Below, piece after piece: positions 4,141 to 20,472 of a DNA stretch of 64,000 nucleotides; position 1 is the first letter of the stretch, and each line of letters starts with the position of its first letter. The notes under the pieces were generated by a model, which did not search any database, had not been told where the DNA came from, and saw only the letters and a program-made list of their open reading frames with translations. A program made the translations under genes and the position numbers. The DNA is from Haliotis rufescens (lineage: Eukaryota), in assembly GCF_023055435.1 (NCBI RefSeq), contig NW_025963890.1, positions 22,754,001 to 22,818,000 of the forward strand, read 5' to 3'.

Positions 4141-4265
4141 CTGGTCCGACCGCACATTCTCCACGGTAAAATTGAACCAAACTCGGAACCGTGGGTTGCA
4201 GGTGTCCGGTCGTATAAACAAGTCATACTCATGCTCTGTGATGTAATCTACCCGCCCTAGATTTC
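4141..4265 (-). CDS. AGBL4: Cytosolic carboxypeptidase 6 (AGBL4/CCP6), coding exon 3
   Basis: ttttcAG acceptor and GTgag donor; encodes (G)NLGRVDYITEHEYDLFIRPDTCNPRFRVWFNFTVENVRSDQ, nearly identical to the vertebrate AGBL4 N-terminal domain. 125 nt, phase 1 to 0. Confidence 0.95.
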
Positions 4266-4544
4266 CTGAAAACAGTGAACAAACTGTACAGAAAAACAGA
4301 ATTAAACAATAACATACACATCATATAACATATACATGATACCACATAAAGCATGGGAAAAGTGTAAATTGACCTGTAGTTTAACACAATTAAAATTCAT
4401 AAGTTCATTGGTCATTTCATCTTATAGCTTAACATCATTCTCATTACAATCACACCTATTACCATGATACCTCCCTGAGCCAAGATCTGTTGACACCTCC
4501 CAAGGATGTCAGGTCAGGTGAAACCTGAGATAACATTGACTTCC

Positions 4545-4994
4545 CAATCTCATTAAAATCAGATCTTAGTTCTCGCTACCGCCACACAAAGATCTGAGAA
4601 CATCCCTTTACGGGTCAAGTCAGACCATCCTTGCCCAACCAATGGAATGACCAATCAGAAGCCAGCTTTCTCGTGCTTTACGGCACTAATTTCAAATTGG
4701 CGATTACGCTTCGAAACATATTTTGACAAATTCTCGATTACAAATTTGAAACCGGAACAAAAGAACATTCTGGAATGGCTAATAGATAGTCTAGATTGTA
4801 TGGATTCAGTCGTTAAACCCGTAACTATCGTTCAGAATACCCCGTGTTAAAGTTTTCGAGGTTGCGTGATCAGAAATCAAATTTCGACTGTCAATTTCAT
4901 GATCTGGTAAGTGACGCTCTGATTGGTTGGATGAAAGGTCGTCAGATCTTTGTTGAGCGGTTGCGAGAACTAAGGTCTGATTTGAATGAGATTG
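4545..4994 (+). mobile_element. Non-autonomous DNA transposon (AcademH-like), copy 1
   Basis: TIRs caatctcattaaaatcagatcttagttctcgctaccg / cggttgcgagaactaaggtctgatttgaatgagattg; direct flanks attgacttcc (4535-4544, 4995-5004); internal RecQ Q-motif-like ORF remnant. Confidence 0.85.
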
Positions 4995-5388
4995 ATTGAC
5001 TTCCCAATCTAAATGAAGGGTGTGTGGGTTCTTTAGCCAATCGGATGTCATCTTTCTAAAATGATTCAGCTTCACTTCTTAGCCTCAATTCAGAAATTTT
5101 GATTTGTACAACGACAAAAAAAACACAGAACACAAATAGGCTATTCCTTTGATGGTACACCATCATGCTCAGAAATGACAGGGTGATCAAAATGAAAATA
5201 TCCACAATTATGATACGGTGCAGCCTGAATATATTACATTCAAAGATGGTCATTTCAGCTTGTTTTCGAGATACAGGAATCAGATAGGCTGGTCTGAATG
5301 CTTAGCTCACTCGTATAGAGAGTTTAGAATCCTCAAAGCTGATTGACACAACCAGTGCAGCAGTCCTAACCATTGAGGCATCATGATA

Positions 5389-5477
5389 TATACTATTCAA
5401 AAGAAGTTAAGGAACACCTAATTAACTAAAGTAATATGACAGAATTGGGTGTTCTTTAAGTTCTTTTGAGTAGTATA
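5389..5477. mobile_element. ~90-bp Tc1/mariner-like mini-MITE nested in a decayed SINE
   Basis: ~30-bp imperfect inverted arms tatactattcaaaagaagttaaggaacacc / ggtgttctttaagttcttttgagtagtata with TA ends. Flanks (~5290-5570) resemble reverse-strand family-B SINE. Confidence 0.65.
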
Positions 5478-6598
5478 CGATCAGCGAAGTCACAGTGACC
5501 ACCTGATCAATTTAGTTTTACGTCAAGTAAAGGTTACTGGGGACCAATTCTAAACCAGAAACCCATGGAGACTTGCACTGAAAACATTCAAGCAGACTGC
5601 GGTCTCCATAACCCTTCAGTCTCACAAACAACTATACAAAAACAATTCAATAACTTCTAAACTGGAATCTTTAAAAAAATCATAAAACAAAACTCATGAA
5701 GTCATAGTGCATAAGCAACTGCCATATCCTTGAACCTATTGTACATATGAAAAATGATACACAGCAACAGAGCAATAAATAACTGTCCAATTTTCAAAAG
5801 ATATCTGCAAGAATTTTAATGCCACACTGCCAATGATAAAAGAAAAGTCTGATATGACCTGATGAAAATCCCAAGATGCAAAATTACTATTTGCTTTAGA
5901 AAATTGGATCAATAGTATATCCGAAGTTAAGGTCTAAACATAAAAATCTAACAAAAAGACAGGAAGTGCATCAGTTCCTGATGCCAAGGGAGATTTATTT
6001 CATCAGTGTTGAGAATCTTGTATTGTTACATTCTAATGGAAAACAAAAACAGAATTTTCTCAAGCTGCTGGCGTGGGTGGCTGGATCTCCGCCTTCCACG
6101 GGATACACTCTCTATGTTTGATGGAAGAGGAGAGTTATAGAGCTTTATAGTTTGTTTGACAAGAGTTGATTACAGTGTATATCTAGCGAGAGGATAAAAA
6201 CCATGATAGATATTATTAGGGGTGGCAATCGTTATTGATAATAGAGATTGATACTCGCTAACTAAATACCGATCAATTACCGACAAATATTGAAGAAGTA
6301 ACTTCAAGCAAACATGCAAGGAAGTCACGAAAGAAATCAACATACATTTGTACATGTATCTCACACCACGGGTGTGCAGAGACACATTTATACATAGATT
6401 ACTTTGTGGACATTTGAGATAATAAAAAAACCAGTTGCTTTCCGTCTTTGACAATTGACATGATTGACAATAACAAGTCTGTATCGATAAATCTAAACTT
6501 TATTTCATCACAATGGTTTATGTAAGTTATTATCGATGACAACAATTTCATATCAAGAATCATTAATTTTCTTCCCGTCAACGATAATTCCAATGGGG

Positions 6599-6700
6599 CT
6601 GGGACAATACAGCAACTGTGCTATAATACGTATTATGATACCATGGTCGCTGGGACAATACACCAACTGTGCTATAATACGTATTATGATACCATGGTCG
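6599..6700. repeat. 51-bp tandem duplication
   Basis: ctgggacaatac(ag/ac)caactgtgctataatacgtattatgataccatggtcg occurs twice. Confidence 0.85.
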
Positions 6701-17701: not shown

Positions 17702-17855
17702 GTGTCGTATGCTCGACCAAGCTGTGAAAGTATTAAAGGAGCAAACCTTTACATTAGTGGCTTGCCAAAATCTATGACTCAGTTGGACTTGGAGAAACTG
17801 TTTTCTTCTTGTGGAAGTATCATAACTTCAAGAATACTATATGACCAAAACACAG
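17702..17855 (+). CDS. elav: ELAV exon 4a (linker and first half of RRM2), mutually exclusive
   Basis: tttcAG acceptor; [51 protein letters not shown](G); GTactc donor; 154 nt, phase 0 to 1. Confidence 0.93.
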
Positions 17856-17918
17856 GTACTCTATTTGGATTTATTTGATTTTGTCAATTTATTTACTTTG
17901 TTCAACAATTATTTGTAG

Positions 17919-18072
17919 GTATCATATGCAAGACCGAGTAGTGAAAGTATAAAGGGTGCTAACTTGTATATATGTGGCTTGCCCAAGTCTATGACACAAC
18001 AGGATTTGGAGAAGTTGTTTTCACAGTGTGGAAAGATTATAACATCCAGAATTCTGTACGATAATACCACAG
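17919..18072 (+). CDS. elav: ELAV exon 4b (paralogous copy of 4a), mutually exclusive
   Basis: ttgtAG acceptor; [51 protein letters not shown](G); GTcaga donor; 154 nt, phase 0 to 1. Missed by the ORF track. Confidence 0.93.
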
Positions 18073-19558
18073 GTCAGAGTCTTTCTCATTAGTCTGTGTG
18101 CATGATGGGTCTGTCCGTCAGTCCAGCCTCCATACCGGGCAGTTCAACGTTCATTTCGTTTCCGTTGACCAATATTTCACTTCTGTTCTTATGTTATTTT
18201 GTTAAACATGGTTGGAATGCGTTGTTTTCCACTTGTTTCTGCTAGATCATCATTTTCCTACTAATCTGCATGATTTGATAACACATTTTACTTGTGCAAG
18301 ATTTACCATTTCATCCGATATGATTTATCTACCTCAGCAGATTGTTCATCTTACATTGAGTACTGCATATGTTTCTGTATGCTTGATGTTCATTCAGCGT
18401 TGTATGTTTCCAATACAAGTGGCTTGTTGATCATATCTGCATGGATGTTGTTCAAGAAGTTTTGTCAATTGCTAGATATTTAGTGTGTTTTCCCACTTCT
18501 TAAGTTCCAATTTGAGATACAGGAAGTTAACTATCCACTACTCTAACATTCTCATTTCATTAAGATTTTGACAGTTTGGCTTGTTCAGTGTCCAAAGAAA
18601 GAAGTGACTAAGGTTATGAATTCATGTGAAAGCGTCAAAGGACTTCTAAAATCAATGAAGAATTATATCCACTTGTTTAAAGTTTATCTCTAGGTTAATT
18701 TTATTTAGTAATTTGAATACTTTGTTGTTTATTTTGGCAAGAAATGTTGAGTTTGTTGTTGTCTGTTTGTGAAATAATTTTTTCCAAGGCATGAAGGAGG
18801 AAAACTTAGTTGAAAATTTGGTTTTGTTTCTTTGGGTTTCTTGTCCTATTGAAATGGTCAGATCCTTCTAGACAGTTGTGAGGCAGTAATTTCCAGAAAA
18901 TGTGTCATAGTTTTGGCAAAGAAATGCACATATCATTTATAAACTTGCCATGTCAGGTAATATTCAAAAAGTCAAAGTACACCCACCCTTACTTTACACT
19001 TGGTTAGTGCCTACATTTATATCAACATGTTTATTTTGTAACACTTGCCATATTTAGTTTGTTACATGTTTATAATTGTATATTTTTAAGTATATGTACA
19101 TGAGTTGTTAAGTTACTTTCCACATTTAGTTGTCATTGTTTATTTGAATGTAATGATACAGTAGTGGTGTTTCCACTGTCAGTCTGCATTTACCAGTAAC
19201 TTCCCAAGCCGATTGTTCAACTTGTTTGTACTCGATGGTGCTTGTATATATTATCAAAATGCTTGGTGTAGTTGAGATATGCTTACAAGAAATATAATCA
19301 TTTGTCAAGCGTCAGCACAGTATTTATCAAATATTGCATTTTTAAATTTGATCAGCAATACTCTACATGTTTAGCCATGTACATAAATGTTAAAATTGAG
19401 CTTTAGGGTTAGTGTTTTCATGTAACAACAGAAGTTTAGACAAGACCTATACAAAGGAAAAGCATCTTTGATGTATTTCATGAGTTTCCTTTCTTTTGTA
19501 GGGATAATGGAGATTTATCTTGTTCAGATAGTAATATGATGCTACTTTACTATTTCAG

Positions 19559-19805
19559 GTTTATCCAAAGGGGTAGGGTTTATTCGGTTTGACCAGCGAG
19601 TGGAAGCTGAACGAGCAATCAACAAGCTGCATGGGCATATCCCAGAGGGGGCCACTGAAGGAATCACTGTCAAATTTGCAAACTCCCCAAGCTCCAACAA
19701 AAACATGACAACACTCACACCCTTAGCCCTAGCAGCTACCTACGTTTCCCCAACACGGAGGTACTATGGACCTATTCATCACCCCACAGCAGCTAGCAGA
19801 TTGAG
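19559..19805 (+). CDS. elav: ELAV exon 5 (second half of RRM2 and hinge)
   Basis: tttcAG acceptor; (G)LSKGVGFIRFDQRVEAERAI...ITVKFANSPS...ASRL(R); GTgcgt donor; 247 nt. Confidence 0.95.
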
Positions 19806-20123
19806 GTGCGTGAACACTGTAGAAACTCATCTAATTGGATATGCTAACATTAGCAATAATGAACCTATAGAGTTTCAGAAGCTTAATTGCAAATATGTTA
19901 TAAATAAGCAAGTATAAATTGCAGTGTGTTCAGTTCTTTAGTGATTGGATGTGTAATGAATGTGTATGAATTGTAAGGCTCAACTCAAATTAAATTGGCT
20001 TTCTTTATTATATGTCACATGGCTATGTTGTAGCCTGTATTTTCATGGCACACTTCCTTTGAATAGATGTTTGTCTTCAAATCATGCAGACCTGATTATA
20101 TATGTTGGATCTCTACCTTGCAG

Positions 20124-20472
20124 GTATTCCCCAATGGATTCAGGCTTGTTACCGAACACAATCCTTCAGACAGCATCGGCAACAACTAGTGCATCAGCTG
20201 GCGCTCTCAATGGCACAGGATGGTGTATTTTTGTGTATAACCTGGCGCCGGATACCGAGGACAGTGTTTTGTGGCAGTTGTTTGGACCATTCGGTGCAGT
20301 GCAAAGCGTCAAGGTTATTAAGGATTTCCAGACCCAGAAATGCAAAGGATTCGGATTTGTCACCATGACCAATTACGATGAATCCATGATGGCAATACAG
20401 AGCCTCAACGGCTTCAGTCTGGGAAATCGCGTACTGCAGGTGTCGTTCAAAACCAACAAATTCAAGGCGTAA
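20124..20472 (+). CDS. elav: ELAV exon 6 (end of hinge and RRM3, stop codon)
   Basis: ttgcAG acceptor; YSPM...[53 protein letters not shown]...[15 protein letters not shown] at 20470-20472. Confidence 0.97.

Follow-up and report, generated by a model that had tools for sequence, protein, structure and literature searches.

AGBL4 (CCP6), the gene of a tubulin-trimming carboxypeptidase, and the neuronal RNA-binding protein gene ELAV stand head to head in the genome of the abalone Haliotis rufescens, with 5′ ends that lie at most about 385 bases apart. Both genes were studied in a stretch of 64,000 nucleotides (contig NW_025963890.1, positions 22,754,001 to 22,818,000 of the forward strand), here called the window and numbered from its first letter. 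A first-pass annotation, made from the sequence alone, had proposed a divergent pair less than 4 kb apart whose linkage predates the protostome/deuterostome split. Both points are borne out, the second by a database listing of the pair in six phyla and by the contigs of many molluscs. We infer that the last common ancestor of bilaterians already had the pairing, and on balance we lean towards the explanation that it was kept because the two promoters interlock.

The start codons of the two genes are separated by 2643 or 2789 bases, depending on the ELAV ATG, and a non-coding ELAV exon narrows the gap further. The ends of the transcripts were read from contigs of public sequencing runs, none of which is recorded as RNA; spliced joints served as the sign of transcript origin, and depth was left unused. 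This non-coding first exon of ELAV (exon 0, 10947..11255, + strand, its start being the furthest contig end) is joined to the next exon (11255>13056) in all eight runs, and the contig pieces listed start at 10947, 10949, 10971, 10971 and 11038. On the opposite strand, AGBL4 exon 1 (10323..10563, −) comprises the coding part from the ATG (10347-10323) and a 5′ untranslated region that extends to at least 10563, as seen in a contig of run X2 spliced over intron 1 to exon 2. This joint is present in two of four runs, and the ELAV exon-0 contig of run X2 begins at 10949. Contig ends bound the gap without fixing the start sites, and by them the two 5′ ends are separated by no more than about 385 bases. 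Both fall into one CpG-rich island (10001..12000), in which the observed/expected ratio of CpG is 0.98, versus 0.32 and 0.35 for the bodies of the two genes. With divergent 5′ ends less than 1 kb from each other and a single CpG-rich region around them, the locus has the layout of a bidirectional promoter. Among ancient gene pairs the head-to-head class is the most frequent, and bidirectional promoters are usually recognized by a gap below 1 kb (PMC3514665).

The same pair is recorded as block 274 ('Planulozoa novel') of the Syntenic Density Database (Robert et al. 2022, PMC8851819, supplementary file 4), with nine species from six phyla. The block table permits five intervening genes and holds no strand, and the counts that follow apply to the matches listed. 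Ten of the 19 rows of the CCP orthogroup fall into the block. They belong to nine species, i.e. Acanthaster, Saccoglossus, Branchiostoma, Latimeria, Maylandia, Capitella (mislabelled Capsaspora in the table), Lingula, Lottia and the centipede Strigamia. In each of the nine an ELAV row adjoins on the same scaffold, and in Saccoglossus, Lingula and Strigamia the two genes carry consecutive ids. The ELAV rows in the block number 11 out of 18 and include Euprymna and Ptychodera, for which no AGBL4 row is listed. The remaining seven, all cnidarian rows included, are placed in block 3973 without a CCP row, a weak sign that the pair is absent outside Bilateria.

Closer relatives were surveyed through the 14 non-abalone molluscs found in both the CCP6 and the ELAV protein lists, a shared contig being scored where the contigs of both genes were equally long. 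AGBL4 and ELAV share a contig in 12 of these species, six of which have consecutive or near-consecutive ids (Pomacea, Littorina, Aplysia, Bradybaena, Elysia crispata and Sinanodonta). A scan of metagenomes yielded nine CCP6 loci, one of which (L065, from a protostome-like animal) has ELAV upstream. There, too, the genes are head to head; the CCP6 ATG and ELAV exon 2 are about 2.9 kb apart, and CCP6 spans about 4 kb versus about 135 kb in abalone. No ELAV match was found at the other eight loci, whose upstream sequence of only 0.4-10 kb is too short to decide. The human genes, presumably, are divergent as well. Their neighbourhood on 1p, to which the first-pass annotation had appealed, is confirmed by the order AGBL4, BEND5, ELAVL4, DMRTA2, FAF1 at 1p33-32.3 (PMC10685534), with BEND5 between the two genes. 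An Agbl4-Elavl4 neighbourhood is also described in the teleosts medaka and stickleback (PMC10516590).

The comparison depends on the identity of both genes. The AGBL4 ATG at 10347 on the minus strand is confirmed, and the gene is intact. Exon 1 is followed on the same strand by exon 2 (9463..9588), exon 3 (4141..4265), which encodes the N-terminal domain PF18027, and exon 4 (805..899). To the left of the window follow eight further coding exons, as far as about -124.8 kb; five of them reach -17.5 kb, and the last three sit past a 100-kb intron 9. About 125 kb of the gene is thus outside the window. Nine exons splice to 384 codons free of stops, and the product is 100% identical over 384 residues to a named Haliotis rufescens CCP6-like protein; AGBL4 and ELAV are both annotated already in abalone. 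The full protein shares 68-73% identity with CCP6 of alligator, sturgeon and shark, 67% with that of amphioxus and 71% with that of sea urchin, and the four other CCP loci of the abalone genome match it at 51% or less. All five deuterostome CCP6 queries have their best match at the locus of the window. In a protein search with exon 5, every name among the best 120 matches that bears a subfamily is CCP6/AGBL4 or that of an overlapping BEND5 model, and human CCP5 scores only 187 bits against abalone CCP6. In addition to PF18027, the protein has the catalytic domain PF00246. It keeps the zinc ligands and the catalytic Glu, whose exon was read in the genome, in HPGE, DLHAH and YTLEVS at residues 230, 326 and 398, which we take to be the CCP zinc and catalytic motifs. 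Judged by sequence, the enzyme is CCP6/AGBL4, an M14D cytosolic carboxypeptidase with putative deglutamylase activity and the best reciprocal match over other CCP subfamilies. The first-pass annotation would have been contradicted by a place in another AGBL subfamily, and the identity matches point to CCP6.

Some further features of AGBL4 were observed. Intron 9 (about 100 kb, C112:22636517-22736534) has a GC donor, and a crude scan of open reading frames revealed no nested gene in it. High-copy repeats in intron 2 (window 4540-5480 and 6460-6960) attract many contigs. Many vertebrate models among the exon 5 protein matches listed fuse AGBL4 exons with BEND5 under the BEND5 name, and a marine metagenome contig (L066) carries a CCP6 coding stretch that is intronless over 217 codons.

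For ELAV, the proposed coding start on the plus strand is confirmed, with ATGs at 12990 and 13136 and a stop that ends at 20472. All three spliced models that were tested are identical in every letter to Haliotis rufescens ELAV-like proteins in the database. Besides exon 0, there is a possible minor alternative first exon (11377..11801), seen in one contig from one of four runs. The alternative exon 1a, whose coding end (12990..12995) encodes Met-Gln, is joined to exon 2 in three of four runs, and exon 1b (13056..13186) holds the ATG at 13136. Exon 2 (13957..14197) contains the start of RRM1 and is followed by exon 3 (16298..16401), the twin exons 4a (17702..17855) and 4b (17919..18072), exon 5 (19559..19805) and exon 6 (20124..23000), all on the plus strand. 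The last exon encodes RRM3 and has a long 3′ untranslated region to at least 23000. The twin exons are separated by 63 bases and agree in 44 of 51 residues; because including both or neither breaks the reading frame, they are mutually exclusive. Both the 4a and the 4b form are annotated, and L065 has twins as well.

The ELAV protein has three RRMs and scores 269 bits with HuD, 266 with HuC and 256 with HuR, versus 169 with Sxl. For one intronless paralogue the scores are 185 versus 175. In a tree of 21 ELAV rows, none of them from vertebrates, two intronless genes are split with 100/100 support from a group of the window gene and named Elav1 proteins, in agreement with the published Elav1/Elav2 split (PMC7489019). 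These two three-RRM ELAV-like genes of abalone (L002 on C594 and L003 on C545) probably belong to the lophotrochozoan Elav2/Sxl-like group. On protein scores and tree, abalone ELAV is Elav1, nearer to the Hu proteins than to Sxl or lophotrochozoan Elav2. ELAVL1-4 form one ohnologue set. Since the Hu scores are near-equal, the gene groups with Elav1 and the ohnologue set is single, abalone Elav1 is the pro-orthologue of all ELAVL1-4, and the match with ELAVL4 alone that had been drawn from the human locus does not stand.

The suggestion that orthologues of DMRTA2 and FAF1 might follow just past the right edge of the window failed. They lie about 41 Mb and 12 Mb off on the same contig, with a Dmrt4/5- and 93B-like DM pair at 63.8-63.9 Mb and FAF1-domain exons at 34.8 Mb; we assume the DM labels from motifs and from adjacency in Aplysia and Lottia. 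What is shared is therefore a chromosome, not a neighbourhood. The nearest DM exon, 744 kb to the right of ELAV, was rejected as a nearby candidate: its type is divergent and resembles that of a copy on a different contig. Two similar divergent DM-domain genes were noted, L013 (C112:23.52 Mb) and L014 (C35), and four of the five DM matches in the genome are on the contig of the window.

ELAV and a probable CAAP1 gene are separated by about 310 kb of gene-poor DNA (C112:22778000-23090000). The 148 longest of 1012 non-repetitive downstream open reading frames gave four matches, all to retroelements, a scan that short exons would escape. The 312 kb downstream of ELAV are not CpG-depleted (observed/expected 0.80), and we regard the gene-poor stretch as a candidate enhancer field, better than the AGBL4 introns. 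Past it comes a CpG-depleted block that ends in a CAAP1-domain exon (− strand), 450 kb from ELAV; the block is probably one CAAP1 gene and the next gene after ELAV. Because CAAP1 also flanks ELAV in six of the nine species listed for block 274, the conserved unit is a triplet, AGBL4-ELAV-CAAP1.

In the explanation that we lean towards, AGBL4 and Elav1, which are transcribed in opposite directions out of one CpG-rich island, would depend on the same few hundred bases for both promoters. Any break between them would have to fall there, so that few rearrangements would survive. The first-pass annotation had left the choice between a shared promoter and a regulatory block; the closeness of the 5′ ends, within about 385 bases, speaks for a shared promoter region. 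The regulatory inputs of the two genes are probably separate. On the CCP6 side, RFX- and Forkhead-like words may provide ciliated-cell input. An RFX X-box-like word lies at 10486..10497 (+), one of two in the whole window by the consensus we assume, and a Forkhead-like word with an X-box half-site, as we presume these motifs to be named, lies at 10306..10319 (−), where AGBL4 intron 1 begins. The ELAV side would combine a TATA promoter (TATA-like word at 10928..10934, +, 13-43 bases ahead of the ELAV contig starts), alternative first exons and distal enhancers for neurons, the latter perhaps in the gene-poor stretch downstream. The island also contains a CRE palindrome (10525..10532). Shared sequence need not imply shared expression. 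Long AGBL4 introns are not needed for the linkage, because CCP6 of L065 is only about 4 kb long and still linked.

Several observations weigh against interlocked promoters. In zebrafish, ciliated tissues and also the central nervous system have high ccp6 levels (PMC4055263), and annelid Elav1 is expressed differently, in neurons (PMC7489019). Mammalian HuD has eight first exons, and its main promoter, driven by neurogenin, lies at its own exon E1c (PMC3708524). The contigs analysed here give neither start sites nor expression levels. The Forkhead/X-box word has one match in the window versus 0.07 expected, but six of 100 shuffles had one too, and it was found in just three of six animal loci (the window, L062 and L065); given this marginal chance level and its overlap with the splice donor, it is a lead only. 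When the 4.4 kb from AGBL4 exon 2 to ELAV exon 2 were compared by blastn with eight upstream stretches of other animals, only the exon-1/donor region matched. The 5′-5′ orientation was seen directly in two genomes, abalone and L065. Finally, Patella vulgata and P. caerulea have the two genes on different contigs, and the Patella ELAV falls into one cluster at 90% with the ELAV of Lottia, where the link is kept. Adjacency in intermediate lineages, on which the first-pass annotation had staked its case, thus holds in many molluscs and six phyla but is broken in both Patella. Because Patella lost the link, the constraint would be strong, not absolute.

The idea preferred in the first-pass annotation, a genomic regulatory block with ELAV neural enhancers in the introns of a bystander AGBL4, we consider rather doubtful. 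In its favour, AGBL4 is large here, with its 100-kb intron 9, and the vertebrate duplications left four ELAVL ohnologues but presumably a single AGBL4. Such a pattern is described for regulatory blocks (PMC7530604). The link holds, however, in L065 with its 4-kb CCP6, which makes a block less likely. Moreover, the AGBL4 introns are CpG-depleted (0.32), as in a methylated gene body, whereas the 312 kb downstream of ELAV are not. AGBL4 is also absent from the supplements of PMC7530604 and PMC4729200, though the targets of the block survey are transcription factors. A wider proposal is tentative and in our view unlikely, namely that AGBL4-ELAV-CAAP1 was an ancestral bilaterian regulatory unit with a pan-neuronal elav promoter back to back with a ciliary promoter. 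Its flanks would have been split after the vertebrate duplications, AGBL4 going to ELAVL4 and CAAP1 to the ELAVL2 region, where we assume it to lie, and the desert upstream of ELAVL2 would be an eroded AGBL4 copy; a literature search on this gene desert returned unrelated results only. If the proposal were true, Patella would be a natural experiment with uncoupled promoters.

Passive retention, by which the pair would survive only because so short a gap offers breakpoints a tiny target in slow-rearranging genomes, with no shared function, appears quite improbable. It would accommodate the loss of the link in both Patella while Lottia keeps it, the listed ELAV rows of Euprymna and Ptychodera without AGBL4, and the lack of conserved intergenic sequence in the blastn comparison. 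Against it stand the presence of the pair in six phyla and the persistence of CAAP1, which in abalone lies beyond about 310 kb of breakable DNA; a small target does not account for the latter. Chance adjacency of another CCP subfamily or ELAV paralogue, i.e. convergence or false orthology, is largely refuted and hardly credible: the database orthogroup does lump all CCP subfamilies, the Strigamia rows are unnamed and the ELAV tree is without vertebrate rows, but the five deuterostome CCP6 proteins, the names among the exon 5 matches and the fully supported separation of the intronless ELAV-like genes all argue otherwise.

The AGBL4-ELAV linkage itself is not new, having been catalogued in the 2022 supplement. 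Block 274 holds the same pair with the CAAP1 flank, but without strand, distance or comment, and abalone is not among the matches listed. Judged by titles and the beginnings of abstracts, no paper discussing the linkage in invertebrates was found, though the pair list of Irimia et al. 2012 may include it. Added here are the gap of less than 400 bases, a second head-to-head case (L065), the shared contig in 12 of 14 molluscs, the Patella break and the triplet. As in abalone, the vertebrate genes are neighbours and the ELAV gene has several alternative first exons (PMC3708524); in contrast, DMRTA2 and FAF1 follow ELAVL4, whereas CAAP1 is probably next in abalone, where a single pro-orthologue with a twin exon 4 stands for the vertebrate set. 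Known bidirectional pairs such as HSPD1-HSPE1 (Irimia et al. 2012, PMC3514665) likewise consist of unrelated genes, 5′ to 5′, less than 1 kb apart and in several phyla. While classic pairs are co-expressed partners, the abalone pair joins a ciliary enzyme to an RNA-binding protein of neurons, and the two have no known pathway in common.

Ancient linked pairs of this kind number in the hundreds. Throughout the animals, elav serves as the standard marker of neurons, and reporter drivers would naturally be taken from the DNA upstream of it. An abalone fragment reaching more than about 0.6 kb upstream of the first ELAV exon, however, also carries the CCP6 promoter and start codon, which affects the design of reporters and the reading of knock-outs. 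Together with the compact form in L065 and the break in Patella, the pair forms a small testable case on gene order that has lasted for more than 500 million years.

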